A DNA stretch of 32,000 nucleotides, taken from assembly GCF_014696135.1 (NCBI RefSeq), contig NZ_JACJPP010000024.1, positions 1 to 32,000 on the forward strand, read 5' to 3'. The notes beneath the pieces were generated by a model. That model ran no database searches, was not told where the DNA came from, and was given only the letters and a program-made list of their open reading frames with translations. Position 1 is the stretch's first letter, and the number at the start of each line of letters is the position of its first letter. Shown here in pieces: positions 4,242-25,368 of this stretch. Origin of the DNA: Nodosilinea sp. FACHB-141 (GTDB taxonomy: Bacteria; Cyanobacteriota; Cyanobacteriia; Phormidesmidales; Phormidesmidaceae). Position numbers and translations under genes: made by a program.

Positions 4242-4979
4242 GTGACCAAAGACTTTTTCATTAGCTACAACAGAGCCGATGCCACCTGGGCTGAGTGGAT
4301 CGCCTGGGTGCTGGAGGAGCATGGCAAAACGGTCGTCATCCAAGCCTGGGACTTTCGCCCTGGGGGCAACTTTATTTTGGACATGCAGCGGGCGGCCCAA
4401 GACTGCGATCGCACCATTGCTGTCCTATCAGAAGACTATCTTAACGCCCTCTACACCCAGCCCGAATGGGCCGCTGCCTTCAAGCAAGACCCCACCGGTA
4501 TAGAGCGCAAACTTCTGCCCGTTCGCGTTGCCCTTTGCAAGCCCACTGGCCTGTTAGCTCCTCTGGCGTATGTAGATCTGGTGGGCAAGTCTGAGGCAGA
4601 AGCCGAAACCTTGCTGCTTGGAGCACTCCAGGAGCGCGCCAAACCCACCAGTCGCCCCAGCTTTCCTCAATCCGTACAACCCCAAGAGCGAATTACATCA
4701 GGCACAGTCACCTTCCCCCAGAACATCCCTGAGCAATCCGTCCAATCTGTCACTAGCAACACAGCCCTACGCCTTGCCCTGTTTCAAAACCTGGCTTCTC
4801 TCCCCAGCCCTCAGTTTGAACAAATCCTATTCGCCCTGAGCCCACCCCCCGGCAATGTGGCTTCGGCCCAGGCCCCCCAGGGCAACCGCGTCAAAGACCT
4901 GCTCGATTGGGCCACCAGCATTGGCCCTGGCCTAAGCGAAGTAGAAGCCATTTACAACCAAATCGCCCGCCCTCGCTAG
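4242..4979 (+). CDS. TIR-domain effector protein with C-terminal helical adaptor (effector-associated-domain-like) module
   Basis: GTG start. The N-terminus reads FFISYNRADATWAEWIAWVLEEHGKTVVIQAWDF...IAVLSEDYLNALYTQPEWAAAF, which fits the bacterial TIR pattern including the conserved W/E region. The last ~70 aa (LFQNLASLPSPQFEQILFAL...RVKDLLDWATSIGPGLSEVEAIYNQI) resemble the death-like adaptor domains that pair effectors with STAND NTPases. Confidence 0.8.
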   Translation: MTKDFFISYNRADATWAEWIAWVLEEHGKTVVIQAWDFRPGGNFILDMQRAAQDCDRTIAVLSEDYLNALYTQPEWAAAFKQDPTGIERKLLPVRVALCKPTGLLAPLAYVDLVGKSEAEAETLLLGALQERAKPTSRPSFPQSVQPQERITSGTVTFPQNIPEQSVQSVTSNTALRLALFQNLASLPSPQFEQILFALSPPPGNVASAQAPQGNRVKDLLDWATSIGPGLSEVEAIYNQIARPR

Positions 4980-7408: not shown

Positions 7409-7493
7409 GTCAGAGCCACCACTCCCGACCCCAAGCCTTTTCCACTAGCACAAAGGGGAGTCTGCTTGAGCCACCTAACGCTGAAGCCTAGTT

Positions 7494-7645
7494 ATCTGGT
7501 CATCTGCCTAACCAGCAGTCAAGACAACCAGATAACCAAATGAAAAACCCCTTGCTAGAAAGCAGAACTAAATTGTCAACCAGGTAGTAACATCTGGTCA
7601 TCTGCCTAACCAGCAGTCAAGATAACCAGATAACCAGATAACCAG
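7494..7645. promoter_or_regulatory. centromere-like (parS/parH-type) iteron region and parA promoter region
   Basis: The 31-bp unit atctggtcatctgcctaaccagcagtcaaga occurs twice (7494 and 7592). Three tandem ATAACCAG octamers (7622-7645) abut the parA ATG. The ACCAGAT motif is present in both orientations. Confidence 0.6.
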
Positions 7646-8245
7646 ATGAAAATTATCACTGTGACTGGGTATAAAGGGGGCTGCGGCAAATCCATGACGG
7701 CGATCCACGTTGCGACCTACTTCAGTCGCCTTGGTGATGTGGTGCTGGTGGATGGCGACCCAAACCGTACTGCGATCGCATGGAGCGATCGTGGCCAGCT
7801 GCCATTCTTAGTGGCAGACGAGCGCAAAGCTATGAAAGTGGTGCAGGGCCGTGACTTCATTGTGATTGATACCCCTGCCCGGCCTGACTCATCTGACCTT
7901 AAGGAATTGGCCGACGGTGCCGATTTACTGATCCTCCCCACGGTGCCCGATGTAGTTTCCTTAGAGCCAATGCTGCAAACGGCTAGCGACTTGGGAAACG
8001 CTACTTACCGGGCGCTACTTACCATCGTTCCTCCTAAGCCCAGTCGGGAGGGCGAGACTATGAGGGCTGAGCTGAGCGATAACGGGTTGCCGGTGTTCAA
8101 AACCATGATTCGCCGTGCAGCAGGCTTTCAAAAGGCTGCTCTTGCGGGGGTGCCAGTGTCAGCACTCACCGGGCGCGATCGCATGGGCTGGCTCGACTAT
8201 GAGTCACTGGGCAAAGAAATCTTGGAGGTATTAGGTAATGGCTGA
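7646..8245 (+). CDS. parA: ParA/Soj-family partition ATPase (small, type Ib-like)
   Basis: 199 aa. It has the deviant Walker A ITVTGYKGGCGKS and Walker A'/B-like segments VLVDGDPN and FIVIDTP. The size and the downstream small RHH gene fit type Ib partition systems. Confidence 0.85.
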   Translation: MKIITVTGYKGGCGKSMTAIHVATYFSRLGDVVLVDGDPNRTAIAWSDRGQLPFLVADERKAMKVVQGRDFIVIDTPARPDSSDLKELADGADLLILPTVPDVVSLEPMLQTASDLGNATYRALLTIVPPKPSREGETMRAELSDNGLPVFKTMIRRAAGFQKAALAGVPVSALTGRDRMGWLDYESLGKEILEVLGNG

Positions 8246-8546
8246 GCAGCAGGGCGGAAAGTACGGGTCACTGATTCGGCAGGCCAAACAGACAAAGCCA
8301 GATGACCAGCCATTTGGTTTACCAGATGGCCAAATAACCAGCAAACCAGATAACCAGACTACTGGTCAACCAGATGCGAATAGCCAAGTTAAAGAAAAAC
8401 AGGTGAACCTCTGCGTCAAGGTGCCTGAGTCCTTAAGGCGGCACTGGGCCATCCAAGCAAAAATCCAAGACATCACCATGACTGATGTAATGGTTGAGGC
8501 TCTGACCCAGAAGTTTGGCTTGCCAGATGACCAGACAACCAGATAG
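8238..8546 (+). CDS. ParG-like ribbon-helix-helix centromere-binding protein candidate
   Basis: 102 aa. The start overlaps the parA stop (ATGGCTGA). The N-terminal half is disordered with PD(D/G/N)Q repeats. The C-terminal part VNLCVKVPESLRRHWAIQAKIQDITMTDVMVEALTQKFG fits the strand-helix-helix RHH pattern. Confidence 0.6.
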   Translation: MAEQQGGKYGSLIRQAKQTKPDDQPFGLPDGQITSKPDNQTTGQPDANSQVKEKQVNLCVKVPESLRRHWAIQAKIQDITMTDVMVEALTQKFGLPDDQTTR

Positions 8547-8791
8547 CCAGATTAGTGGTTTGGGTGAGGGCGATCGCCCAAACTGGTTAACTCTGGTTGA
8601 CACGAATCGCCGATCCTGTTCCATTAGACGGAAATCTTTAACCTTGCCTTAACGTCTTTGGTTGCGACGTGCATGATTTAACATGTGCTAATACCGCGTG
8701 CGATCAGCCTTTGAGCTAGCTGAGGCTTGGGTGGTGGTTGGAGCGTAATCCTGCCCAATACCGGGCCAGGCATAGATACACCCTGATGGAG

Positions 8792-8830
8792 CCCCACCGA
8801 GCCTGGTAGACACGGTGGGGCGCTTTTTTG
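8792..8830 (+). terminator. intrinsic terminator candidate
   Basis: Stem CCCCACCG (8792-8799) pairs with CGGTGGGG (8813-8820), followed by CGCTTTTTTG. Confidence 0.5.
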
Positions 8831-8835
8831 CGGCA

Positions 8836-8863
8836 ATAAAAAGCCCGCTGAGAAGCCAGCGGG
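8836..8863 (-). terminator. intrinsic terminator candidate (minus strand)
   Basis: Stem CCCGCTG (8844-8850) pairs with CAGCGGG (8857-8863) across a 6-nt loop. On the minus strand it is followed by CUUUUUAUUG. Confidence 0.45.
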
Positions 8864-8939
8864 TGTGTGGGTGTAATTTGCTTAGAGCAAAGACTTGGGC
8901 TGACCGACACGGCGATCGCCAGTGAATAGTGAGAGCCCC

Positions 8940-8987
8940 CCCCGCATATAGCAGATTAACCCACTGCTACATGCGGGGCGCTCTTTT
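8940..8987 (+). terminator. long hairpin plus U-tract, terminator or small-RNA 3' end candidate
   Basis: CCCCGCAT-a-TAGCAG (8940-8954) pairs with CTGCTA-c-ATGCGGGG (8964-8978), followed by CGCTCTTTT. Confidence 0.45.
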
Positions 8988-9192
8988 AGTGGGGGATCTG
9001 TCTGGAACTCACACAGATCCCCCACCCCGCCAAATTAGCACAGCCACCGAGGGGCGGGCTAGGGCGCGATGGTCAAAGACCGGCCTTGGGCCAACGCAAC
9101 CAATTGACTCAAGATTCTGTGAGTTCATTGCGCTTTCGCGATCAGCCTTCTGCCCCAAGGGCACACTGAGGGCAATCCTAGGGTTTTAGGCC

Positions 9193-11048
9193 ATGGCTAC
9201 TCTCATCGCCTCCTACAGCAGCTGCGCCTCTCGCATGACTGGGGGAGAACGACGGCTAGCCCAGCGGCTCGAAGCAAAATTAGAGGATGACCACTTGCTC
9301 TGGTATGACGTACCCGTTGGACCCAAAGCACTGCACCCTGATTTCATCCTCCTGCACCCCTCACGGGGTCTCTTCGTGCTGGAGGTCAAAGACTGGAAGC
9401 TAGACACCATCAAGGCGGCGAACCCTGATGAGTTTGAAATTGAAACCCAATCAGGTCAGCGCAAAACTGTTGATAGTCCCCTTGTCCAGGCGCGAGATTA
9501 CGTCCTGGCTATGTGCTCCCTGCTGGAGAAAGACCCGGAGTTAGTGCAGCCCGAGGGCCGCTACCAGGGCAAGCTCATTTGCCCCTACGCTTATGGTGTA
9601 GTGCTGCCCAACATCACCCGCCGTCAGTTCGACTCACAACTGGCGCTGGGCCAGGTGATTCATGCCAACTTGGTCATCTGCAAAGACGAAATGACCGAGG
9701 CTGTAGACCCAGGGGCCTTTCAAGAACAGATCTGGGCCATGAGCCACTACAACTTTGGCACCACCCTCACCAACGAGCAGATCGATCGCATCCGCTGGCA
9801 CCTATACCCAGAGATGCGAATCTCCGCCAAACAACTCTCTCTCTTCCCCAAGGAACCTGCCGACACCCTACAGACCGCTATCCCGCAGGTGCTCAAAGTC
9901 ATGGACTTGCAGCAGGAGCAGCTGGCTCGCAGCCTGGGCGAGGGCCACCGAGTTATTCATGGTGTCGCTGGTAGCGGCAAAACCCTGATTCTGGCCTACC
10001 GCTGTCAACACCTGGCCGAAGCCATGCAGACCGTTTTGGTGCTGTGCTTTAACGTGGCGCTGGCGTCCCGACTGCGATCGCTGATGGCAGAAAAGGGGCT
10101 AACCAAGCTGGTTACCGTCCGTCATTTTCATGGCTGGTGTACCGAAGTGCTGAAGCAGCACCAGCTGCCGCGCCCTGATTACCGGCAATACAAAGGCGCT
10201 GAGTACATCCAACGGCTAGAGGCTGCGGTGGTGGCTGCCGTCGAGGCGGGAAAGATTCCCACTGGCCAGTATGGGGCGGTGATGGTCGATGAGGGCCACG
10301 ACTTTGCACCGGAGTGGTTGAAGCTGGTCGCACAAATGGTGAACCCCTTCACCGATTCCCTGCTGGTGCTCTACGACGATGCCCAAAACCTCTACGGCCA
10401 ACGGGCAAACCGTGAATTCAGCTTCAAGAGCGTGGGTATCAAAGCCCAGGGTAGAACGACTATCCTCAAGCTCAACTACCGCAACACCGCCCAGGTGCTG
10501 ATGCTGGCCTACGAGTTCGCCAAAGAAGTCATGCAGCCCATCAGCCCTGATGAGGACATACCGCCGCTGGTGCAGCCCAACAGCGCCGGGCGCGAGGGGC
10601 CGGTGCCGGAGTTGGTAAAGTGCCGGAGCTATAAGGAAGAGGTAAATCACATCATCCAGAGAGCCCAGCAGCTGCAGGAGCGAGGCATCCCCTGGAATGA
10701 GATGGCGATTATCTACCGCGACAACTGGATGGGAGAGAAGGCATTCCAGCAGCTCCAGCAGGCTGGAATGCCTGTGACTGGCTCAACCAAAGCAGCAGCA
10801 GCCGTAACTTTGACCCCTCGACCCAAAGTATCAAGCTGATGACGATGCACGCCAGCAAGGGGCTAGAGTTTCCGGTGGTGTTTATCCCTGGGCTAGGCTA
10901 TCTGCCAAACCGCTATAACGATGAGGCTGATGAGGCCCGGTTGCTCTATGTGGCTATGACCAGGGCGATTGAGGTGCTGGTGTTGAGCTGCGATCGCAAG
11001 TCGGTGTTTGCTGAGCGCCTGGATGGGGCGTTGGGGAAGGTGGGGTGA
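9193..11048 (+). pseudogene. NERD-domain / SF1 (UvrD/Rep-like) helicase, interrupted by a frameshift near 10772-10780
   Basis: The N-terminus is NERD-like (HPDFILLHPSRGLFVLEVKDW). Helicase motifs are GVAGSGKT, VMVDEGHDF and LNYRNT. Frame 1 reads sensibly to ...QQAGMPV and then runs as nonsense to TGA at 10837-10839. The -1 frame, open from 10701, reads WLNQSSSSRNFDPSTQSIKLMTMHASKGLEFPVVF...LLYVAMTRAIEVLVLS, the UvrD-type C-terminal motifs. Confidence 0.7.
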
Positions 11049-11184
11049 ACAAGCAAGCTCACCTGTTGACCCGTGCGATCGCAGTGGGCTTGGGGTAAAG
11101 GAAGGTTGAAGATAACTGGTGCGATCGCGGGCGGAGTTGAATGGCTGGGTACACTGAGCTTCTCTACCTAATCCCCCTCCAGGA

Positions 11185-11925
11185 ATGTCAGACAGGAAAT
11201 TTCACTCCATTAAGGCGTTACCCTGCAATGACTACAAGGAAGCAGCGCCCGAAATGGATCGATCCATAAACTACGTCAAGTCCAAACAAAGGGTCGCTGA
11301 CCATGGGGAGGTGTTTACCCCAGCATGGATGGTGGAGGCGATGCTTGACCTGGTGAAGCATGAGACAGAGCGTATTGACTCCCGCTTTTTGGAACCGGCC
11401 TGTGGAAGCGGCAACTTTCTAGTGCAGATCATACGGCGCAAGCTGGCGGCGGTGGAGCTTAAGTACAGCAAGTCTGACTTCGAGCGGCGGCACTATGCAT
11501 TGCTTGGGCTGATGTGCATCTACGGGATCGAGCTGCTAGCGGACAACATTGTCGAGTGCCGTGCCAATGTGCTGGAGATTTTTGCCGAATACCTGGATCT
11601 GGATGAGGAAGACGATCTCTATCGGGCCGCATCCTATGTGCTGTCTCAGAACCTGGTGCATGGCGATGCCCTGACGATGCGTACCCACAACGACCAGCAA
11701 ATTACCTTTGCCGAGTGGGGCTATTTGGGGAAAGGCAAGTTTCAGCGGCGCGACTTCCTGCTCGACTCCCTTACCCAATCATCAAGCTATGTAGTGGATT
11801 CCCCGTTGTTTGCCCACCTGGGGAAGCATGAGATTTTCACACCGATGAAGACCTACCCGCCAATGACGGTGAGCGAGCTAGTCGCTGCCGAACACGGTGA
11901 CGTGCTGAAGGAGGACTCTCTATGA
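11185..11925 (+). CDS. DNA-methyltransferase-like protein with AdoMet motif I but no catalytic NPPY motif
   Basis: 246 aa. It contains GEVFTPAWMVEAMLD, FLEPACGSGNFL (a canonical motif I) and VHGDAL. No (N/D)PP(Y/F) motif occurs anywhere. Its stop overlaps the next ATG (ATGA at 11922-11925). Confidence 0.6.
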   Translation: MSDRKFHSIKALPCNDYKEAAPEMDRSINYVKSKQRVADHGEVFTPAWMVEAMLDLVKHETERIDSRFLEPACGSGNFLVQIIRRKLAAVELKYSKSDFERRHYALLGLMCIYGIELLADNIVECRANVLEIFAEYLDLDEEDDLYRAASYVLSQNLVHGDALTMRTHNDQQITFAEWGYLGKGKFQRRDFLLDSLTQSSSYVVDSPLFAHLGKHEIFTPMKTYPPMTVSELVAAEHGDVLKEDSL

Positions 11926-13514
11926 GTGATCAGGTTGGCTTCGCGCTGCGTGGACGCAACCCGGATGTGCTGACGTGTATTGCTAACCTCTCAAACGATG
12001 AGGTGTTTACGCCGCCGGAGTTTGCTAATCGGATGCTAGATACGGTGGCGGAGGCGTGGGCGGCGAACCATGGCGGGGCTAACTTGTGGGCAGATAAAAC
12101 GGTGCGGTTTCTCGACCCCTGCACAAAGTCGGGAGTGTTTTTGCGGGAGATAACCAGCCGCCTAGCGGAGGGGCTCAAGGCAGAGATACCAGACCTTCAG
12201 GAGCGCGTAGATCACATCGTCACCCAGCAGGTATTTGGCATCGGCATCACCCATCTCACCAGTTTGTTGGCAAGGCGAAGTGTGTATTGCAGCAAGCACG
12301 CTAATGGGGAGCATTCCATTGCTAAAAGCTTGAATAGCAATGAGGGCAATATCTGGTTCCAGCGTACGGAGCATAGTTGGGGTGCCACAAAATGCAAGTT
12401 CTGTGGCGCGCCAAGAGCAATTTGGGATCGTAAGGCAGAACTTGAGAACTATGCTTATGCGTTTATTCACACCGATAACATAAAAGCTCGGGTTGCCAAA
12501 TTGTTTGGAGGTGAAATGCAATTCGACGTGATTATCGGGAATCCCCCGTATCAGATGAAGGGAGGGGCAGGTGGTACAAGCGATTCATCCATCTACCACT
12601 TGTTTGTGGAGCAGGCGAGGCGGCTGGAGCCGCGCTACCTCAGCATGGTTATTCCTTCGCGCTGGATGGCTGGTGGGCGTGGATTAGAAGATTTTCGCAA
12701 GGAAATTCTTGGTTGTCGACAGATCAGAACATTGGTCGACTACCCGAACTCGGCTCAGGTTTTCCCTGGCGTCGATTTGAAGAGTGGAGTCTGCTACTTC
12801 TTGTGGAGCCGTGAGTATTACGGAGATTGTTTGGTTACCCTCATTCGTGATGATATCGCGGTTGGCCCTACGGAGCGCAAGCTCGATGAGTACGACATAT
12901 TTATCCGAGATGTCCGTTCTACAAGTATTCTCAAAAAGGTTCTTAAGATGCATGAGCCTAGCTTTCAGGAATTGTTGACGGGCGATACTCCATTCGGACT
13001 AGCCTCTAACTTCACTGCTTTTAGGCGTGGTGATCCTGATGATGGCGAGGTGAGGATTTACTCCAGATCAAATGCGGGTCGCCGAACAGGAGCAATGAAG
13101 CGCTCGCTCATAGCTAAGAACACACATCTCATCGACACGTGGAAAGTGCTTGTACCGAAAGCCGGGCCAGGTAACAGCGGTGGGCACGTTCTACCTGACA
13201 TGGTGCTAGGCAAGCCGAGTGTTGCCGAACCAAATTCCGTTTGCACTCAAACATGGATTGTTGCTGGACCCCTGACATCAAAGAAGGAATCTGAGATTGT
13301 TGCTGGCTATATACAGACAAGATTTTTCCGTTTCCTTGTGTCGCTGCGGAAAATTAGTCAAGACGCAATGAGAGGCGTTTATCGGTGGGTTCCACAACAG
13401 GAATGGAATCAGGACTGGACGGACGATGTGCTCTATATGAAGTACGGAATAACAAAGGATGAGCAGGAGTACATCGCAACGATGATCAGGGCAATGGACG
13501 AGTGTAATGACTAA
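11922..13514 (+). CDS. N6-adenine DNA methyltransferase (gamma class, Eco57I/TaqI-like)
   Basis: 530 aa. It contains VFTPPEFANRMLD, FLDPCTKSGVFL (motif I with the first Gly replaced by Lys) and FDVIIGNPPYQ (motif IV), followed by a target-recognition-like C-terminal half. Confidence 0.8.
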   Translation: MSDQVGFALRGRNPDVLTCIANLSNDEVFTPPEFANRMLDTVAEAWAANHGGANLWADKTVRFLDPCTKSGVFLREITSRLAEGLKAEIPDLQERVDHIVTQQVFGIGITHLTSLLARRSVYCSKHANGEHSIAKSLNSNEGNIWFQRTEHSWGATKCKFCGAPRAIWDRKAELENYAYAFIHTDNIKARVAKLFGGEMQFDVIIGNPPYQMKGGAGGTSDSSIYHLFVEQARRLEPRYLSMVIPSRWMAGGRGLEDFRKEILGCRQIRTLVDYPNSAQVFPGVDLKSGVCYFLWSREYYGDCLVTLIRDDIAVGPTERKLDEYDIFIRDVRSTSILKKVLKMHEPSFQELLTGDTPFGLASNFTAFRRGDPDDGEVRIYSRSNAGRRTGAMKRSLIAKNTHLIDTWKVLVPKAGPGNSGGHVLPDMVLGKPSVAEPNSVCTQTWIVAGPLTSKKESEIVAGYIQTRFFRFLVSLRKISQDAMRGVYRWVPQQEWNQDWTDDVLYMKYGITKDEQEYIATMIRAMDECND

Positions 13515-13665
13515 GACCATCGAAGAAATCCTTTCGCCTAAACCAGAAGCTAGGCTGCGGGTTTACTCCTACTCTATTGATGACGAAGCTCACCAGGGGC
13601 TTCTAAAAGAGCGTCTTGTCCTACCTATCTTGTTGGCTAACGCGCCTCCTGATTCTTTTGCATAA
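13507..13665 (+). pseudogene. remnant: first ~34 codons of a GIY-YIG-helicase paralog fused to unrelated sequence
   Basis: The ATG at 13507 overlaps the MTase stop (ATGACTAA). MTKTIEEILSPKPEARLRVYSYSIDDEAHQGLLK aligns with the N-terminus of the 16340 gene (MPKPTIEEILAPKPEARPRIYAWTPDD...GLIK). Homology ends near 13610, and the frame stops at 13665. Confidence 0.6.
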
Positions 13666-13831
13666 GCTATCCCAACACATTACGCGCAAGGTCTATACTT
13701 TCGTCCCGACCCAAGAATGGACTAGGAAGTGGACAGATAAGGCTCTTTACGAGAAATATGGCATCACTTCTAGTGAGATCGCGTTCATCGATCAAGTTTT
13801 CCGTCCAATGGACCTCGCCAACCCCTTATAA
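13640..13831 (+). pseudogene. remnant: last ~60 codons of a second adenine-MTase paralog
   Basis: HKLSQHITRKVYTFVPTQEWTRKWTDKALYEKYGITSSEIAFIDQVFRPMD aligns with the C-terminus of the 11922 MTase (RKISQDAMRGVYRWVPQQEWNQDWTDDVLYMKYGITKDEQEYIATMIRAMD). There is no N-terminal body upstream. Confidence 0.6.
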
Positions 13832-13845
13832 CAACGAGGAAGCAA

Positions 13846-16339
13846 GTGTCAGAAAGTAACCCACTCGATAAACTGCCGTCGCCTGACTTCTCAACGAAAC
13901 GCATTTACGCCTACCAGTTGAGCCTCAGCGAGCTTGCTAGGCGTATCAAAGTTGGCGAAACCGAACGTTCGGTTCGTAGCCGCGTGAAGGAGCAGGTGAA
14001 CACGGCTGGCCTATCGGATGTGGTGAAAATCTTGATGGACGAACCTGCCGTTGCGGCGGACGGGCGGACCTTCAGAGACGTTGATGTCCATGAGGTCCTC
14101 AAGCGGATGCCCGGGGTTACGCACCGGACAGAGGGCGGAGGGGTGGAGTGGTTTGAGTGTTCTCTGGAGCAAGTCCAATCCGCCTACAATAGCGTCTACG
14201 CAGGGGAGACCTTCACCAGGGTTCGCGACAAGAGTTTTGGTCTCAGAGGCGAACAGATTCGAGCTATTGAGATGGCCGATGCCTACCTTACCTTCGCGTT
14301 GGCCGACGGGCGAGAGGCACGGTTCCTGTGGAATGCAAAGATGCGCTTCGGAAAAACCTTTGCTGCTTATCACCTAGCCATGCGCCGCAATGCGAAGCGG
14401 GTGTTGGTCGTCACCTACAAGCCGGCCGTCGAAGACGCGTGGCGGACCGATCTGGAGACGCACACCGACTTCGAGGGGTGGGTCTTCTTTTCTCGTGCGT
14501 CCACCGAGGACCCTTCATTCATTGCGACCGACACCCCGCTTGTCTGTTTCTCGTCCCTCCAAGACTTGCGGGGGCGAACGGTGGATGGCGCAATCAAGGA
14601 GCAGAACCAGTGGATACACGACGTAGTGTGGGATCTCGTCATCGTGGACGAGTATCACTACGGCGCGTGGAACGATGCCACCCAAGAGCTTCTGTCGGGC
14701 GAGGTAGGAGGCGGAGAAACTGAGCTCGCGAACGCACGCGGGGCTGATTCGGAAGAAGATGATTCAAAGGATCTCGTTGAACGGCTAGACAACATCAAGG
14801 GTAAAGTCTTCCTTTGCCTCTCCGGCACGCCATTCCGGGCAATAGCGAGCAATGAGTTTTCTGACGAGCAGATCTTCAACTGGACCTATACCGACGAGCA
14901 GAGAGCCAAGGAAGAGTTCGCGGCCAACTATCCTGACCAACGGAACCCCTACGGTGCGCTGCCACAGATGAACCTTCTCGTCTATCAGCTACCTAAGAAA
15001 CTTCGTGAGGTGGCAATCGGAGGCAAGCGCAATGAGTTTGATCTCAACACCTTCTTTGCAGCTACGGGCAACGGCAAGAGAGCATCATTCACACATAGGG
15101 ACCAAGTTCAGGCTTGGTTGGACTGGCTCAGAGGCCAAGACGTAGGTGCCGCCGTTCAAGTTTTGGATGTAAGCACTGCCAAGCCATTCCCGTACGCGGA
15201 CACCAACGTCCTTCCTTACATGAACCACTCAGTTTGGTTCCTACCAGCAGTCGCGTCTGTATTTGCGATGCGGAATCTCCTAGCTGAGCCTCACAATGCC
15301 GTTTCTTGGGGACAATTCACTGTATTGCCAGTGGCGGGCAAACAAGCTGGTGATGGTGCTGACGCGCTACCACCTGTCCGAGAAGCTATCTGTAGCGGCT
15401 ACGATACGAAGACAATCACGCTCACATGCGGAAAACTCTTGACCGGCGTCACAGTACCTCAGTGGTCAGCCATTTTGATGCTCAAAAACCTCGAGGCACC
15501 TGAGAGTTACTTCCAGGCTGCGTTTCGCGTTCAGTCCCCATGGTCAGTGTGGAACCCGGATGGCACCAATCCTAACGAAGAGAGAGTTCTTAAGCCCGCC
15601 TGTCTGGTGCTAGACTTCGCACCGACACGGGCTCTTCGTCTCTTCGCCGATTACGGCATGCGGTTAGGAAGAGGTATGGACGCCGACAACGACGTTAAGG
15701 AGTTAAGCAAATACTTGCCGGTCCTCGGCTTTGATGGCACAAGGATGCAGCCAGTGGATGTGGACGAGATCATCGATACCGCTTTTCAAACTACCACTGT
15801 CGACACCCGCTGGATGCAGTCTAGGAAGTTCATCAACCCAGACGCTTCAAAGCTTGAGCTACTCAGTGAGGAGGTTCGACGGGCACTTATTTGCGTTACA
15901 AAGCAGCGGCAATCGGACCGCAGTGCTGATGAAGATGAAAACGTCATTAACAAAACACCGGAACTTAAGGAGGGTGAAGGAAATACTAGCAACGACAGTG
16001 AAGATGGCGGCTCAAACACCGATCAAGAGGACGATCTGCCAGAAGAAGACCTTGCGAATCGACTGAGCTTCATCGCGAAGCGCATTAACGCATTCATGTA
16101 CTTATCTGACGACATTGAAAAGAACCTCAAAGATGTTTTAGCCACGGACGAGGCTGAACTCTTTCGCATGGTAATGGAACTCCGGAAGGACGAAATGGCC
16201 GCCCTTGTAGATGCGGGCCTATTCCACGAGCAGGCAATGCGACTTGCAATCCATCAGTTCAGGCGCGCCGATGTCGCTTCCTTCCGTTATACCGGCCTTG
16301 ATCCGCGTTCTGGCCCCGAGAGCATTAAGGGAAGCACGG

Positions 16340-16347
<8 letters not shown>
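13846..16347 (+). CDS. GIY-YIG/T5orf172-like nuclease domain fused to SF2 (DExH, ResIII-like) helicase; paralog 1
   Basis: GTG start, 833 aa. The N-terminal module reads RIYAYQL..IKVGETERSVRSRV...VEWFEC. Helicase motifs are NAKMRFGKT (Walker A), IVDEYH (motif II), LSGTPF (motif III) and QAAFRVQSPW (motif VI). The C-terminal linker is acidic. Confidence 0.8.
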
Positions 16348-18904
<2,557 letters not shown>

Positions 18905-19053: not shown

Positions 19054-19491
19054 ATGAGTGATCGTACATATTGGCTATGTCTCTTCAACCACACCACCTG
19101 GCAAGAGTTTTTAGACGCTGGCGGGGCAGTGATGGGCTTTCCAGAGACCAGACAAAATACTGTTAGGCAAATTAAACCAGGAGACTACCTCTTGGCTTAC
19201 ATGACGGGAGTCTCTCGATGGATAGCAGTGCTGGAGGTAATGGATGAACCTTATGACGATCTCACCCATATTTGGAAGCAAGCACTGTTCCCTTGCCGGG
19301 TCAAGGTTCAGGTAATTACCAGCGTTGATATTGAATCAGGAATACCAGCACTTTCTCTGAGTAAAAATCTCAAGATGTTTGACAATATGAAAACGCCTAA
19401 CTGGGGGTTATTATTCCGTACCGCTCCAAAGAAGTTAATCTCTGAAGATGGTGAGGCGATTGTCAAGGCCGTTGAGGATGCGGCGGCGTAG
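19054..19491 (+). CDS. EVE/PUA-like domain protein candidate
   Basis: 145 aa. It reads TYWLCLFNHTTWQEF...IKPGDYLLAYMTGVSRWIAVLEV...FPCRVKV. This fits the YWL...W...pGD...Y...G pattern of PUA-superfold EVE/ASCH-type domains. The assignment is tentative. Confidence 0.5.
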   Translation: MSDRTYWLCLFNHTTWQEFLDAGGAVMGFPETRQNTVRQIKPGDYLLAYMTGVSRWIAVLEVMDEPYDDLTHIWKQALFPCRVKVQVITSVDIESGIPALSLSKNLKMFDNMKTPNWGLLFRTAPKKLISEDGEAIVKAVEDAAA

Positions 19492-19606: not shown

Positions 19607-20035
19607 TCAGGCTCCTTGCCTCAGCTCGTAAACCCGCTGCCATTCTTCAGTCGTAACCTTGAAATTGGTGGAGTTGGGTTGGCGAATCACTATCAAGGTG
19701 CTCAAAACAGGGTCTTGCTTTAGCTCACTCCGCAGCAGAGGCCGATCCAACAACTTATCGGTAAAGCGAATGGTGGCAAACGGTTTCTCCCCTAAGCGAG
19801 ACTTATCCAGCCAGTAGCCAATATCCGGCAAATCTGCCATCAGCTTGGGAACTTCGATTATGTCTGCGATCGCATATAACCCCGCCTCTTTGCCCGATAT
19901 CCAGATCAGTACCCCATCACCAGGCTGCATCTCTTTGGCGTACCGGGTGACCAACCAGGGCATCTGGGTAAAGTCTCGAATGCCGTCAATGATGCGGTAA
20001 TACTTTGGGTTTCCCTGGAAGAGCCAGTAAGCCAT
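19607..20035 (-). CDS. EVE-domain protein
   Basis: The start was moved to the internal Met at 20035. The track start at 20128 overlaps the recombinase gene and adds an Arg/Cys-rich leader. MAYWLFQGNPKYYRIIDGIRDF...MQPGDGVLIWISGKEAGLYAIADI is a typical EVE (PUA-like) N-terminal pattern. Confidence 0.6.
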   Translation of the reverse strand: MAYWLFQGNPKYYRIIDGIRDFTQMPWLVTRYAKEMQPGDGVLIWISGKEAGLYAIADIIEVPKLMADLPDIGYWLDKSRLGEKPFATIRFTDKLLDRPLLRSELKQDPVLSTLIVIRQPNSTNFKVTTEEWQRVYELRQGA

Positions 20036-20084
20036 GGATGTACATCGCCAGAACGTCTCTAGATAAGGGTATGTCACCTGGCCT

Positions 20085-20624
20085 CTACAACTGCGCGATC
20101 GCATCCACCTTCTCTTCCTCCGACACATCGAGATACCGCTGGAGCGCCGCCATTGACGACCACCCGCCCAGGTCTTGAATCGCTTTCAGCCGGACCCCCG
20201 CCTTATCCAACCGAGTCGCCCAGGTGCGCCGGTTGCTGTGGGTGCTGTAGCCCCGCAGTCCTAAGAGATCGCACGCCTTACGCAGCGCCGCATCACAGGC
20301 CTGCCGAGTAATCGGCCCTTGCCCATCCCGCCCTGGAAACAGATACCCCCGACTTGGCAACTCTGCCGCCTCCAGCACCGCCCTCAACTTGGGGTGAATT
20401 GGCACTGCTCGCGTCCGCTTTGTCTTCGTCGTCGCCTTGCGCAGCACCAGCGTATTGCCTACCACGTCCTCCGCCCGCAGCTGTCGCGCCTCGCTCACCC
20501 GGCAGCCGGTGTAGTAGCAGATCGAGAAGAGCGATCGCATTTTAGGGCTGAGTTCCCCCATCACCTGCTCGAACTGATCCGCCGACCAAATTTCCGCCTG
20601 GTCGTGGCGATTTTGCTTCGGCAC
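20085..20624 (-). CDS. short tyrosine recombinase (catalytic domain only)
   Basis: GTG start, 179 aa. It contains YYTGCRVSEARQL (Arg I), THSNRRTWAT (HxxR) and GGWSSMAALQRYL (W...Y nucleophile). There is no N-terminal core-binding domain. Confidence 0.8.
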   Translation of the reverse strand: MPKQNRHDQAEIWSADQFEQVMGELSPKMRSLFSICYYTGCRVSEARQLRAEDVVGNTLVLRKATTKTKRTRAVPIHPKLRAVLEAAELPSRGYLFPGRDGQGPITRQACDAALRKACDLLGLRGYSTHSNRRTWATRLDKAGVRLKAIQDLGGWSSMAALQRYLDVSEEEKVDAIAQL

Positions 20625-20796: not shown

Positions 20797-20828
20797 ATGC
20801 CAGCTGATTGGATCCAATCAGCTGGCAT
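20797..20828 (-). terminator. perfect 32-bp palindrome 39 bp downstream of the 876-aa gene; terminator or protein-binding site
   Basis: ATGCCAGCTGATTGGATCCAATCAGCTGGCAT. I verified it base by base as self-complementary around 20812/20813. On the minus strand it is followed by UUGCUAUUAUC. Confidence 0.45.
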
Positions 20829-20866
20829 GCAGAAGTGTGGAGTGCTCGTCGGATGATGAAGCTTAG

Positions 20867-23497
20867 TTAAGCGGCTTCATCCTCTAACGGTGGCTCTGGC
20901 AAGTCTTTGTTTCCCTGCTGAGAGATATTCATTAAGGTTTGGTTGATAAAGTCAACATTAGCCTCTACGACAGGAGCCATCTTTTCAACTGATGTGCGCA
21001 AGTCATAGTCATACTTATGTCGATCCTCAGAGTGTTGGAGAAGAAGCGCAGCTGATTCTCGATACTCTGGAAATTGACCTGTAAACATTTTTCGAAGGTT
21101 AGCGGGAGGTACATCGACGCCAGTCCACCACTCGATCATCCATTTAATACGTTCAGCCCAGGATTTAGGACCTGGGACTGGGCGTGTGCTACGTGCCATT
21201 CGGAAAAAGTAATTGTGATTAACTGGTCCACGTGCTGAACGTCCCCAATCTAACCATTGACGTACATACCCATAGAGATCCTTGTTGCCAAACTGGAGAT
21301 TAGGTAGCTCTACCCAAAACCCATCATTGTTTAGCAGTACTGTCGGCATAGATGATCCAGTTTTATAGTCATCAACGCCATGATGGACATAAAATCTTAT
21401 CTCGTCTGCCTTTCCATTAGCCCTTAATTCATCCGCCGGTATAAAGCCATTGGAGTATAGGTATCCTTCCTTAAAAGTTTTCCCAATCTCAAGCTCATAA
21501 AACGTGCGTGACCGAGATGGAAAAATAACAGAGAAGGCGATACTCAAGAATCGCTGTAGCTCTTGAGCCATCGCTCTTTCAGGCCGTGTCTTTTCGGTAT
21601 AACCTAACTTTGCTGCAGAACTTCGGATGTAAATCGTGTCTTGTTCAACTCGCCACCGCTGCATCTCCATAGCATAAATAACTTGTGACCAATGAACCGA
21701 TTTCTCGTGATAATTGACAGTAGCTGGCTGTCTATCAGATTCATCCTTAAGCTGTGCTTGTAAGTTGAGCAGACGTAGTAAAATCGGAATGTTTTGTGGT
21801 ACCGGAAATTCATCCGTGCCCAAAACATCTCGATATAAAAACTTGGCCATTGCAATTGCTACACTCACTCGCTTTTGCTGAGAAGCTGCTTTTCCGCCGG
21901 TAAAGTCTAGATACCTGTGTATGCGTTTAATATCGTTATCAGCTGTGTCATAAGCTTGCTGCTTTCCTGATTCTTCGGCAAAACGAAATGCTTCAAAATT
22001 ATCGAAATCCCTAAGTCTAAATTTAAGCTGACATACAGAAATCAATGCCTCAAAGCATAAATCTTCTAACGATACACCTTCATATCGATGAAGCCAGCCC
22101 ATATATTGGCGTATTTTCTCAACTTCCCCTTTCAGTGCGCCTGGGGTAACTTTTTTCCCTGGCTTGTTCGCCCGATGGTTAGAGTAATCTAGGATTTGTT
22201 GAGCCAAGCGGTCGTTGGTGTAATCATTAGGAAACCTCTTTGCCCCAAGTTGGTGAACTGGTGCTTGCTCCTGACTCAGCTTTAGACCAGATGGGCTAGC
22301 TTTTTTTTCAACTGGGCGATCTCTAAAGGTTCGCAAGGTAATTTCTGCTTTAGCAATATATCCAAAGAAACCTTCTGCTATTGCCCACTCTAACCAGCTG
22401 TTAACCTTCGATATGTATGTTTTTTTGCTTCGATCGGTGATGGAAATACTTGCTAAGTAATCAGCAAAGATCTGTAGTAGGTGCTGATTATTGTTCATTT
22501 CTACAGTCTCAAGAAAATCCAAAGCCAGTTGGAAATCTTCAGCGGTTGCTCTTTGCCCAGAAATGTGAGGGCCACCTAAAGCTGGCACGATATACCTGAC
22601 AATTATGCTTTTAAAGAAGGAGGCTTGCTTGGCATCGAGGGTTAGAGTGTACTCAGCAAAGGCCTCCAGTGTTGTAGCTGCGTGTCTGGGGTAGACCATC
22701 TCTCCGGTAGGTGCTGGAGGCTCAGTAGAATTAGGGTATTCGGGTTTAGCTTCAGGTTCAGGAAACGGCAGATAGCCATGCTCTCGAACCGAATTTAGTA
22801 AGGCCCTTAGCAGCCGACGCACACGAGTTTCCTGAGCTTCAGATCGCTCATAGATTCGCAAGACCCGAGTGGCAATAGTCAAAGCCTCTTGCAGGTATTC
22901 CAAAGGCACCTGCTCTAGGTAGGTTAGTCCGGCCTCAATCTCATCTACCCTCAAAGGATTATGGAGGGGCACCGGTCCGCCACAACCAGGTACGAAATAT
23001 TGGACGATCGCGTAAAGCGCGGACTTTCGGATTTGTTCATCTAGTGGCTGCAGGTAGATCTCAACAATTTGCCGAGTTGAATAAGTCAGCTCCTGAGAAC
23101 TAAGAGGCCCAACAGGGATGTCACTGCAAAGATCTAGAGGAATAAGATTTTCAGGTATAGGGAGAGATCCCTGTTGTCGTCCCCAGTCAATAAGGCCTCG
23201 CAGGTTGCGGCGAACTCGCTCTTGTTGTGCTTGCGATGTATTGTTAGATTCAAATATTGGAGACAAGACTTCTGGGATGCGGTTTAGTTCTTCAGCCTTC
23301 ATATTCGCTAGGAAAGATAACCCAGCATCAACATCCTGGTTTGATAGTTTGGTTCGCTTGTTGGCTAATGGACATGGTCCGCCCATTCCAGGGACCGCGT
23401 AACGAAATAATGCATTCCGAAAGTCGTGCATTTCTGATGCTTCATCCTGTTCATCAAGATGTTTGTAGTAGCGTGTGCAAAGTGTTTTAGCTTGCAT
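20867..23497 (-). CDS. large tyrosine-recombinase-like protein (876 aa) with triplicated N-terminal module
   Basis: Low-GC ORF. The C-terminal domain carries FPSRSRTFYELEIG (Arg I), DDYKTGSSMPTVLL (Lys hairpin), PANLRKMFTG (xxxR, with His replaced by Ala) and LLQHSEDRHKYDY (His, then Tyr at +9), in the canonical order and spacing. The N-terminus holds three ~105-aa repeats. Confidence 0.65.
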   Translation of the reverse strand: MQAKTLCTRYYKHLDEQDEASEMHDFRNALFRYAVPGMGGPCPLANKRTKLSNQDVDAGLSFLANMKAEELNRIPEVLSPIFESNNTSQAQQERVRRNLRGLIDWGRQQGSLPIPENLIPLDLCSDIPVGPLSSQELTYSTRQIVEIYLQPLDEQIRKSALYAIVQYFVPGCGGPVPLHNPLRVDEIEAGLTYLEQVPLEYLQEALTIATRVLRIYERSEAQETRVRRLLRALLNSVREHGYLPFPEPEAKPEYPNSTEPPAPTGEMVYPRHAATTLEAFAEYTLTLDAKQASFFKSIIVRYIVPALGGPHISGQRATAEDFQLALDFLETVEMNNNQHLLQIFADYLASISITDRSKKTYISKVNSWLEWAIAEGFFGYIAKAEITLRTFRDRPVEKKASPSGLKLSQEQAPVHQLGAKRFPNDYTNDRLAQQILDYSNHRANKPGKKVTPGALKGEVEKIRQYMGWLHRYEGVSLEDLCFEALISVCQLKFRLRDFDNFEAFRFAEESGKQQAYDTADNDIKRIHRYLDFTGGKAASQQKRVSVAIAMAKFLYRDVLGTDEFPVPQNIPILLRLLNLQAQLKDESDRQPATVNYHEKSVHWSQVIYAMEMQRWRVEQDTIYIRSSAAKLGYTEKTRPERAMAQELQRFLSIAFSVIFPSRSRTFYELEIGKTFKEGYLYSNGFIPADELRANGKADEIRFYVHHGVDDYKTGSSMPTVLLNNDGFWVELPNLQFGNKDLYGYVRQWLDWGRSARGPVNHNYFFRMARSTRPVPGPKSWAERIKWMIEWWTGVDVPPANLRKMFTGQFPEYRESAALLLQHSEDRHKYDYDLRTSVEKMAPVVEANVDFINQTLMNISQQGNKDLPEPPLEDEAA

Positions 23498-23766
23498 GGT
23501 TAAACCTAAAGGTAAGAATTGCGTAGTGGTATAGCAGGTTGATACATGTGCATTCCTGCTATGAAAACCTGCTTAGTAAAACTGAGCTATCGGCTTTATA
23601 GTTGCAAGCCATAGGCATGCGTGAACCTCAAACTTGCTCAATCAATTGGCCGAATAGTTCAAAAATACTATAGTGATGATATTTTATGTTGCTTTAATTT
23701 GCAATCTAATTTGCTCTGAAATTTAGTGCAAATATCTCTTTTCTTTTGGTTTTTATGTTCCCGCTG

Positions 23767-23801
23767 TATTCCCACGGTACTCCCGTGATATTCCCACAGT
23801 A
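23767..23801. repeat. direct repeat TATTCCCAC(G/A)GTA x2 with 22-bp spacing
   Basis: The copies lie at 23767-23779 and 23789-23801. CCGTGAT also occurs twice (23784 and 23805). The array lies between the 876-aa gene start and the 44-bp palindrome. Confidence 0.7.
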
Positions 23802-23818
23802 ATACCGTGATGCTCTGA

Positions 23819-23862
23819 CGATAATTCGGCGATATTATCGCGATAATATCGCCGAATTATCG
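23819..23862. repeat. perfect 44-bp palindrome
   Basis: CGATAATTCGGCGATATTATCG|CGATAATATCGCCGAATTATCG, with all 22 base pairs checked individually and the centre at 23840/23841. The inner 16-mer ATTATCGCGATAATAT recurs at 23856-23871, 22 bp from its first copy at 23834-23849. Confidence 0.95.
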
Positions 23863-24686
23863 CGATAATATGATGCAACCATTGCTTCTTTAGTTTTATT
23901 TGTACTGGTCAATAATTGCGCTAATGGCCAGACTACCTTTTCTAGTTGCTAATGATTAGGCTAGACAGCTGGCGTAGAACCTTGTTCAAATTTATGATTG
24001 TGGTAGAAATGTAATTTTTGCTATGAAGAGAGACGCCTGCAAGGCAAAACTACTTGTTCTAACTTGATTCTGAAGAATTATTTCATTGGATAGTTTAGCT
24101 GGATTTGAGTGATAGCATAGATCTATTAAATGATCTGTATAAGGTAATAAAGGAAATGATTAGCTATTTAGTTTTTAGATGAGCGTCTAGTTCGACGACG
24201 CAATACTATTACGCTCGTAATGCAATATTTCCCAAGGTAAAATAATTGATTTGTAAGGGTTTAAGGGCTGTTGAGGGTAGTGATGGGCTAAAACCCTTGC
24301 TCAACACGGCCAAAATCGCTGAAATCCTTATATAGCAATGGTTTTGCTTGGGTCGTTTAATGAGGGAGATGATGGCTAGCCGTCATCCCCCTTCTTGTTG
24401 AAAAGGCAGAAGTGCCCCTCTCAGTTTGACAGTGTTGTTAGTATTTTGATCGGGGGCTTGGTAGAGCTCAATATTTTGCCTTGTAGTGATTTTGGTTAGT
24501 CTTTCCATCTGGTAGCGGCGGACTGTACTTGTGCTCATCAGTGCTGTAGCTTGGCGTCGAACCGATAAGGAGCCATCTCAAATTTATCTTTGAGAAAAAA
24601 CACAGCTGTTTGTTGTTTTAAAGATCTTGTTTGAATACTGTTTGTAGCGCTTCAAAGATATTGATGTACAAGGCTTTCAGCGATCG

Positions 24687-24767
24687 TTTCGGCAGAGCTC
24701 TGCCGAAAGTGACCTCGTTTCAGCAGGATTCTGCCGGGTTATGCCCGTTTTCTGGCAGAACTCTGCC
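24687..24767. promoter_or_regulatory. operator-like inverted repeats GGCAGA-N2-TCTGCC x2
   Basis: A perfect 22-bp palindrome TTTCGGCAGAGCTCTGCCGAAA lies at 24687-24708. A second copy GGCAGAACTCTGCC lies at 24754-24767, and a half-site TTCTGCCGG lies near 24729. Confidence 0.4.
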
Positions 24768-25023
24768 GAGCATTTTTGAGCAGAGGCTCAGCTAAGTGGG
24801 AAGACCAGTGCACTTCGATACCCCACTGCATAGGCTATGAGAAAATGTGCTCTGTGCCAGTAGAGCTAAAAAATGGACTAGATTTGGCCCGTTCTGCTCT
24901 GTGCCAGTTGTCTCAAAGCCTGATTCCGCTGTTCTATCTAAAAGTCGTAGCCAAACCTCTCTATTGACTTGAATGCTTTGTGTAGAGAGGTCTTTCGCAG
25001 CAGGTCCAACCGTGGAGTAGTTG

Positions 25024-25043
25024 CGGCGCGGGGCAGCTATTCA
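25024..25043 (+). repeat. left copy of exact 20-bp direct repeat CGGCGCGGGGCAGCTATTCA
   Basis: Identical to 30981-31000. The two copies bracket the ABC transporter operon and the gene fragments after it. Confidence 0.9.
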
Positions 25044-25368
25044 GCTCGAACTGCTTCTAATTTTACCAACGAGCATAGGGCGACGTTTCCGTCGCCAAAA
25101 ACCTTATTAGCTTTTGCTCAATAGTTCACGAGTCCTCAGAAAAGCTGTGCGTTGGTCAAATGTGTCGATTTAGTCAATGCTTGACATAGATTTGTGCAAA
25201 TGAGATTGCAAACTTAAGTTTTCTCCTGCTTTATATCCCTCACCCCCGGATTGTTGATTAGAGCAGGCGGTGGTAGCCTCAAAAGTCGTGAAACCCCTCT
25301 TGCTGCTCAGGATGCTTGATTAAGCCATAGGGGACAACTCATTTTGCAATTAACTGATAGGTGCAGCT

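Follow-up and report, generated by a model that had tools for sequence, protein, structure and literature searches.

A long perfect palindrome in an 11-bp-phased repeat array upstream of a large cyanobacterial tyrosine recombinase gene: a candidate recombination and resolution site

What is a perfect palindrome of 44 base pairs (bp) doing a few hundred bp upstream of the gene for a very large recombinase? The question arises in a 32,000-nucleotide (nt) stretch of DNA from the cyanobacterium Nodosilinea sp. FACHB-141 (contig NZ_JACJPP010000024.1, positions 1 to 32,000), which we call the window. Here the gene for an 876-amino-acid (aa) protein, WP_190706932.1, occupies 20867-23497 on the reverse strand, and the palindrome lies at 23819-23862 within an array of short repeats. 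A preliminary description of this DNA had proposed that the palindrome is the site at which a protelomerase forms hairpin telomeres (a tel site), and had named a novel recombination site among its alternatives. Our analysis leads close to that alternative. We think it somewhat better than an even bet that 23758-23878 comprises the core site and the one-sided accessory repeats of the adjacent recombinase, and that the pair resolves plasmid multimers and probably autoregulates the gene.

The palindrome CGATAATTCGGCGATATTATCGCGATAATATCGCCGAATTATCG equals its own reverse complement and consists of two 22-nt arms without any spacer, as had been described. Its CGCG centre is found at 23839-23842, inside a central hexamer TCGCGA (23838-23843), and the dyad axis falls between 23840 and 23841. 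The distance from its near edge to the ATG (23497) of the 876-aa open reading frame (ORF) is 322 bp, in agreement with the earlier figure of about 320 bp. The arms had been called AT-rich, which is true in a relative sense only, their GC content being 41%. Read from the sequence, each arm is made of two tandem 11-bp subsites of the type CGATAWT. The 44-mer is the longest perfect palindrome of the window (the runner-up measures 32 bp), a palindrome of this length did not arise in any of 200 shuffled versions of the 800 bp upstream, and folding it as single-stranded DNA yields -29.5 kcal/mol (z = -6.5). On the basis of the sequence, the palindrome search, the shuffles and the folding we regard it as the putative core, or strand-exchange, site.

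The palindrome is part of a larger pattern. Its inner 16-mer, ATTATCGCGATAATAT, is found at 23834-23849 and again 22 bp further on at 23856-23871, where the second copy forms an extra palindromic box on the gene-distal side that overlaps the right arm in part. The 14-mer core of this box has two matches in the window, where 0.04 are expected, and no further copy exists in the 32 kb when up to two mismatches are allowed. On the gene side, two repeats of the TATTCCCACRGTA type, TATTCCCACGGTA at 23767-23779 and TATTCCCACAGTA at 23789-23801, are also offset by 22 bp. Both offsets had been noticed before, and the resulting proposal of a 22-bp phasing over about 110 bp is supported and can be refined: 23758-23878 is a single array of about eleven tandem 11-bp units with the majority consensus TTCCCGCGATA. 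The self-identity of the array is 0.57 at a lag of 11 and 0.68 at a lag of 22, both of which are maxima for the 32 kb (window mean 0.25, standard deviation 0.045), and the array was also picked up by Tandem Repeats Finder (TRF). The 44-bp palindrome and its phased repeats are thus confirmed as real and lie far beyond chance.

Units 1-6 of the array (23758-23818) are gene-proximal phased direct repeats, which repeat searches and lag identity lead us to consider putative accessory recombinase-binding sites. Units of the type TTCCCRYNGTA start at 23758, 23769 and 23791, CCGTGAT is found at 23783 and 23805, and GACGATA (23817-23823) spans the border between these repeats and the palindrome. Moving away from the gene, the TTCCCRYNGTA-type units grade into CGNGATA-type units, which are themselves palindromic, and proximal and core units are identical at just 7-8 of 11 positions. 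The 8-bp spacers on either side of the central box, TCGGCGAT and ATCGCCGA, are inverted and not direct copies of each other, so the 44-mer has a true dyad symmetry that tandem duplication does not account for. About 55 bp downstream of the array there is a candidate sigma-70-like promoter for the recombinase gene (TTGCAA, 17 nt, TATCAT; 23676-23704, reverse strand), proposed on its match to the consensus; promoter-like matches in the region are no more numerous than expected from shuffles. The order in the window is core, phased direct repeats, promoter-like element and gene.

What kind of enzyme does this gene encode? Judged from its ORF, profile searches, alignment and a structural model, the 876-aa protein is a tyrosine recombinase of the Xer/integrase-like kind. 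It starts with three tandem helical repeats of about 130 aa (approximately residues 1-130, 131-265 and 266-400), which are followed by a core-binding-like helical region and by the catalytic domain (approximately residues 600-861). The first and second repeats share 37% identity (E 4e-14), the second matches the third with an E value of 1e-5, and the repeats weakly resemble the SAM-like core-binding domain of integrases. The catalytic residues are encoded within 21005-21514 on the reverse strand: R662 (21512-21514), K712 (21362-21364), R802 (21092-21094), H822 (21032-21034) and the nucleophile Y831 (21005-21007). An alignment of 61 diverse family members shows no variation at R662, K712, R753, R802 and Y831 and hardly any at H822; the codons were checked. 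The family consensus reads PHxLR...HS...Y, and box II could also be aligned with XerD. The first His of the HxLR motif is Ala in the 876-aa protein, whereas it is His in the family consensus.

The relationship becomes visible at the level of the family. Direct searches with the 876-aa protein against Pfam, NCBIfam, PHROGs and, with phmmer, the PDB gave nothing usable, and alone it stays below the Pfam threshold; the Pfam Phage_integrase family is matched by 22 of the 61 members. The family profile finds XerD in the PDB (1a0p, 1.8e-8), followed by XerC-like 4a8e, the Tn1549 Int and XerA 5hxy. A model of residues 266-876 reached a predicted local distance difference test (pLDDT) score of 89 and a predicted template modelling (pTM) score of 0.76, and it matches phage integrases in BFVD with probabilities of 0.8-1.0. 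Close relatives are few, with 11 among 5.8 billion proteins, all of them cyanobacterial, and a search of 1.84 billion representatives with the profile puts the wider family at 462 clusters (50% identity). Most members have about 600 aa and cover the last N-terminal repeat and the C-terminal part. The annotated members are plasmid-borne in every record found.

If the site belongs to the enzyme, related genes might be expected to have comparable sites. We counted perfect palindromes (arm of at least 9, spacer of at most 2) in the 500 bp upstream of family genes and in the rest of the loci, which are numbered here with the prefix L. The density is 0.98 per kb upstream of the genes vs 0.049 per kb elsewhere, an approximately 20-fold enrichment (Poisson P ~2e-10), and this bears out the earlier suggestion that a helix-phased, putatively protein-binding array belongs with the adjacent large tyrosine-recombinase-type gene. 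The upstream palindromes measure 46 bp in L023, 28 bp in L004 (T. variabilis plasmid D), 26 bp in L015 and L024, 22 bp in L028-L030 and 18 bp in L016, and perfect symmetry through the centre recurs in five lineages. Their sequences are lineage-specific, yet they track protein relatedness. For instance, a TTGCATA..TATGCAA core is common to L015, L011 and L024, whose proteins are 49-64% identical, and L006, with a 67%-identical protein, has CGATAGG-type half-sites in place of the CGATAAT of the window. We conclude from the recurrence of these lineage-specific palindromes upstream of family genes that the site is tied to the recombinase.

The architecture of these sites is also informative. In L023 each arm of the 46-bp palindrome consists of two tandem 12-bp subsites, like the two-subsite arms of the window, and extra half-sites are found between the two boxes of a near-consensus promoter, TTGCAA-17-TATAAT, and some 45 bp ahead of the ATG. 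The cores of the relatives overall have inverted arms of 8-14 bp; the relatives of about 600 aa possess a classical core with 8-10-bp inverted arms. Proximal direct repeats accompany the upstream palindromes in several lineages, and in L009 and L026-L030 one arm of an inverted-repeat core is repeated in direct orientation 13 bp away from the core, towards the gene. An alignment of L026-L030 shows conserved arms and a central dinucleotide that varies (TT, AA or TC). In the 22-bp core of L028-L030 (approximately 2640-2665 of these loci) the centre is TT in L028 and L030 and AA in L029, which corresponds to a precise inversion of the palindrome; in L026 and L027, which are more distant, it is TC, with arms and flanks conserved. 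The flip in L028-L030 could be a recombination footprint or a simple substitution.

A further likeness was seen in L001 (Cylindrospermum sp. NIES-4074 plasmid AP018273), where two 42-bp repeats at 8644-8685 and 8760-8801, located 1.2-1.35 kb upstream of the homologue, contain TCCCCAC-N4-TCCCCAC and resemble the TTCCCAC units of the window. We did not use this likeness because the pattern is loose and about two chance matches are expected in the scanned DNA.

Tyrosine recombinases with core and accessory sites upstream of their own gene are already known. The internal recombination site (IRS) of Tn4430 spans 116 bp and combines an IR1-IR2 core with DR1-DR2 accessory motifs, and engineered symmetric cores still yield resolution products only, if DR1-DR2 are present (PMC2847244). 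A perfect palindrome is therefore compatible with a mechanism of the Tn4430 type. The site in the window resembles the TnpI/IRS system in its size (about 116-120 bp), in its core of inverted motifs and in the one-sided direct copies of a related motif, and these copies face the recombinase gene both in the window and in relatives. In Tn4430, DR1-DR2 are also found on the tnpI-facing side. The differences are substantial as well: the 876-aa enzyme is two to three times larger than TnpI, has up to three extra N-terminal helical repeats and shows no close sequence relationship to it; the repeats of the window number about eleven and are strictly 11-bp phased; the natural core is perfectly symmetric over 44 bp; and the context is a cyanobacterial plasmid and not a Tn3-family transposon.

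Other plasmid and chromosomal systems offer partial parallels. Cre/loxP of P1, ResD/rfsF of F and Rsd/crs of Salmonella pSDL2 are plasmid multimer-resolution pairs, with recombinases of 260-345 aa and core sites of about 30-34 bp that have an asymmetric central region; crs has several direct repeats and an inverted pair. The locus in the window would share with these pairs a recombinase gene with a single cognate site directly upstream on a low-copy plasmid, but no homology of the 876-aa family to Cre, ResD or Rsd was detected beyond the superfamily level. The best sequence matches of the family profile fall in the group of XerH/difH, XerS/difSL and XerA/dif. Xer sites are nearly palindromic, with 11-bp arms and a 6-bp centre, which fits the 26-28-bp palindromes of L004 and L015. 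However, Xer systems are chromosomal and FtsK-controlled, and their enzymes of about 300 aa lack the N-terminal repeats and the sites a phased accessory array.

How could the site work? The 44-bp dyad-symmetric core would bind a recombinase dimer, with strand exchange taking place around the central TCGCGA. Additional domains or subunits of the recombinase may contact the gene-proximal 11-bp-phased repeats along one helix face and, by analogy with Tn4430 TnpI/IRS, these one-sided repeats would lend direction to the symmetric core. Productive synapsis would then be limited to directly repeated sites of a plasmid multimer, and the multimer would be resolved into monomers. As the array lies shortly before the promoter, its occupancy would probably also autoregulate the recombinase gene. 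The binding of the repeats by the 876-aa protein, the position of cleavage and the role in multimer resolution are what we infer here. The analysis itself shows how the site is built, that the protein is a tyrosine recombinase, that such palindromes recur and that the context is a plasmid. The occurrence of the motif at a single place in the 32 kb and a context of plasmid maintenance (a ParA operon, defence genes and plasmid-borne relatives) also speak for a resolution site.

Several observations weigh against such a site. A significant palindrome is found in just about 7 of about 19 lineages. The preliminary description had raised the prospect of the same palindrome beside homologous genes; these lineages have other palindromes, and the exact 44-mer is not kept even in the closest relatives for which upstream sequence exists (L006 and L007, 60-67% identity). 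The TTCCCAC-type units differ from the core subsites, and a second protein could bind them. Eleven exactly 11-bp-phased units are more like a centromere or an iteron array than like the irregular motifs of the Tn4430 IRS, and conservative recombination sites are seldom perfectly symmetric across the crossover region for as much as 44-46 bp. Finally, Foldseek searches of the PDB with both multidomain AlphaFold models gave helical-repeat noise and no usable match.

One alternative is that the array is purely regulatory, an operator through which the recombinase or a small repressor controls the 876-aa gene with no strand exchange taking place here. The array ends about 55 bp upstream of the promoter-like element, a half-site of L023 lies within the spacer of a near-consensus promoter, and palindromic boxes spaced 22 bp apart are typical of dimeric repressors. 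But the promoter match in the window is weak and such matches do not exceed the shuffle expectation, no small DNA-binding ORF is evident in 23880-25368, and perfect palindromes of 44-46 bp are far larger than an operator needs. Moreover, an enzyme whose intact catalytic set is conserved over 462 clusters needs a DNA substrate somewhere, and regulation and recombination at one site are compatible with each other, as in the resolution-site reading that we favour. We consider an operator without recombination unlikely.

Rather unlikely, too, is a centromere-like (parC/parH-type) site or an iteron replication site that serves another plasmid protein and has nothing to do with recombinase chemistry. 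R1 parC has about ten 11-bp iterons phased at one helical turn, which the roughly eleven tandem units in the window resemble, and the array is situated in a 1.9-kb region that is gene-poor and low in GC. In contrast to R1 parC, however, the array contains a true 44-bp dyad, has no adjacent parR/parM-type operon and goes with a recombinase gene in different lineages. Its immediate neighbours include no ParR/ParM-, TubR/TubZ- or Rep-like gene, and 23880-25368 contains no operon of a small adaptor and an NTPase. DnaA-box-like motifs number 8 vs 11 expected, with none inside the array, and the Rep candidates of related plasmids are of the primase/helicase type and located elsewhere. The ParA operon of the window (7646-8546) has its own flanking 8-bp tandem repeats, and the lineage-specific palindromes recur specifically upstream of genes of the recombinase family.

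The palindrome might instead be an attP-like or transposition site of a small integrative module, the low-GC segment at about 20.8-25.3 kb that includes the recombinase gene. This is suggested by the GC content of the gene and its 1.9-kb upstream region (42-46% in a replicon of 55-60%), by an adjoining truncated second integrase gene and by gene neighbourhoods that differ between relatives. An integrated element would, however, split the crossover site into attL and attR at its borders, and here the palindrome is unbroken and lies in the interior. Direct repeats on the flanks were not observed, although the island borders were not searched for them specifically; the 14-mer core box has no other copy in the 32 kb at up to two mismatches, and the relatives are plasmid-borne in all annotated cases. 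We find this explanation improbable.

There remains the proposal of the preliminary description, in which the 44-mer is an uncut hairpin-telomere site. The 876-aa protein would cut 6 bp apart around the axis at 23840|23841 and reseal each strand on its complement, which would result in a linear replicon with closed hairpin ends. The geometry fits: a 2 x 22 bp perfect palindrome with an alternating purine-pyrimidine CGCG centre lies about 320 bp upstream of a gene of the tyrosine recombinase superfamily, much as in N15 TelN-telRL, TelK, TelA, ResT and TelT, where the palindrome is also long and perfect and stands a few hundred bp upstream of a superfamily gene. The comparison with N15 was apt, as telN has a 56-bp inverted repeat some 190 bp upstream of it. 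For the cyanobacterial TelT the validated site is a perfect palindrome of 2 x 28 bp, and replicons with hairpin ends and a diversity of protelomerases have been reported as common in cyanobacteria (bioRxiv 10.1101/2024.11.13.623437). The N15 layout and this preprint made the idea worth a real test. The symmetry through the centre in five lineages can be counted on its side as well, as replication through a hairpin would restore such symmetry automatically.

The test went against a tel site, which we now consider very improbable. PF16684, the catalytic domain of ResT and TelK, has no match in the 876-aa protein or in 60 relatives scanned, while the positive controls were readily found (TelN 8.7e-24, the PCC 7424 protelomerase 4.8e-44, the G. 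dulcis protelomerase 1.7e-58). With hhalign, the family reaches probabilities below 1% against TelN and against two TelT-related cyanobacterial protelomerases, L036 and L037, which we had found as positive controls by tblastn against plasmids. The PDB chains retrieved with the family profile were those of XerD, XerC and integrases; none bore the name protelomerase or telomere resolvase. The 876-aa protein differs from protelomerases in having no ResT/TelK catalytic, muzzle or stirrup domains and no phage context, and neither 50,697 phage records nor IMG/VR contain relatives of the family. A weak match between the 134-aa N-terminus of TelT and the second N-terminal repeat (hhalign E 0.027, probability 1.8%) is not significant and was set aside.

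The sites themselves point in the same direction. The palindromes of the window and of L004, L015, L023 and L024 lie uncut within contiguous DNA whose flanks are unique and non-mirrored, and a hairpin-ended plasmid has no such state, a phage form like that of N15 excepted. A tel site would be expected to be symmetric, and here the symmetry is broken by the one-sided direct repeats and by the second 16-mer. Phased direct repeats on one side have no counterpart among the tel sites examined and resemble the accessory sites of resolution systems, and the short-type relatives have asymmetric or variable centres. Seven plasmid records bearing family genes are labelled circular (for one the topology was not checked), and the plasmids of relatives are 15-93 kb in size. 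We give these labels little weight because true protelomerase genes are also found on records labelled circular. This is the case for L036 (Gloeothece citriformis PCC 7424 pP742401), whose PF16684 gene is about 1 kb from the record end, and for L037 (a Gloeocapsopsis dulcis plasmid), and both records may in reality be hairpin-ended linear replicons. Conversely, pANACY.05 has a record labelled linear with a family gene 362 bp from one of its ends. We rejected a telomere there, and since terminal inverted repeats are absent and a coding sequence (CDS) runs off the other end, we regard it as an unclosed record. It is just as hard to credit that the Xer-like family is an independently evolved hairpin-forming class (telomere-resolving or palindrome-regenerating), unrelated to ResT/TelK and with the 18-46-bp palindromes as its substrates, in which case the plasmids that carry it would alternate between a circular and a hairpin-ended linear state.

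The surroundings of the resolution-site candidate deserve a description of their own. The window, which is part of a 41,279-bp contig, looks like part of a cyanobacterial plasmid from a host of the Leptolyngbya/Nodosilinea type, with a ParA operon, several defence genes and a peptide ABC transporter. The family is unlikely to be a replication initiator, as two related plasmids have separate Rep candidates. The recombinase gene and a 1.9-kb upstream stretch without convincing ORFs form the low-GC island at about 20800-25300, and this low GC suggests that the recombinase module was acquired apart from the rest of the replicon. A plasmid DNA similarity search with the locus and the 1.9-kb intergenic region gave no match, and no tRNA genes or Rfam families were found in the window. 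The second longest palindrome of the window, the 32-bp perfect palindrome ATGCCAGCTGATTGGATCCAATCAGCTGGCAT at 20797-20828, lies 39 bp past the stop codon of the 876-aa gene and, with its T-rich tail, is a probable intrinsic terminator of this gene (reverse strand). Directly downstream of the large recombinase gene, a 179-aa ORF (20085-20624) encodes the catalytic domain alone of an ordinary tyrosine integrase; it appears truncated and overlaps the start of an EVE-domain ORF (19607-20128, reverse strand), a second one being found at 19054-19491 on the forward strand.

Upstream of the array, a non-coding stretch of about 160 bp (24182-24344, some 700-850 bp upstream of the gene) shares 71% identity with positions 3-164 of L007, which lie about 1 kb upstream of a 60%-identical homologue. 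It is involved in a 32-nt imperfect inverted repeat, in which 24315-24346 pairs with 24653-24684, and could represent a small RNA, a miniature repeat element or a regulatory element that has been conserved. A 22-bp perfect palindrome, TTTCGGCAGAGCTCTGCCGAAA, follows at 24687-24708, with a near copy, GGCAGAACTCTGCCGA, 63 bp away at 24754-24769. Further off, the ParA operon consists of the ParA gene (7646-8245) and a small ORF (8238-8546) and is bracketed by the 8-bp tandem repeats AGATAACC (3.5 copies, 7620-7647) and CCAGATAA (3.8 copies, 8523-8552), which look like its partition site or operator. A dense run of defence-type genes extends over 4242-18904. It includes a TIR-domain protein, a NERD-UvrD helicase, a split methylase of the Eco57I/MmeI type and an NB-ARC/TPR protein with tandem repeats of 126 bp, as well as two T5orf172-helicase ORFs that are paralogous and overlap each other (13846-16347 and 16211-18904).

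A literature search on the enzyme family, the tandem N-terminal repeats and the site found nothing, and the family, its repeats and such a long, fully symmetric and 11-bp-phased site appear undescribed. Cyanobacterial plasmids are poorly understood and are desired as vectors. If our reading is true, one gene and a site of about 120 bp would make up a self-contained stability module. It would also present a tyrosine recombinase that reads a phased array through tandem copies of a core-binding-like domain, and a natural core that is fully symmetric and depends on accessory repeats for its direction. As the recombinase-site pairs are lineage-specific, they could serve as orthogonal recombination tools.

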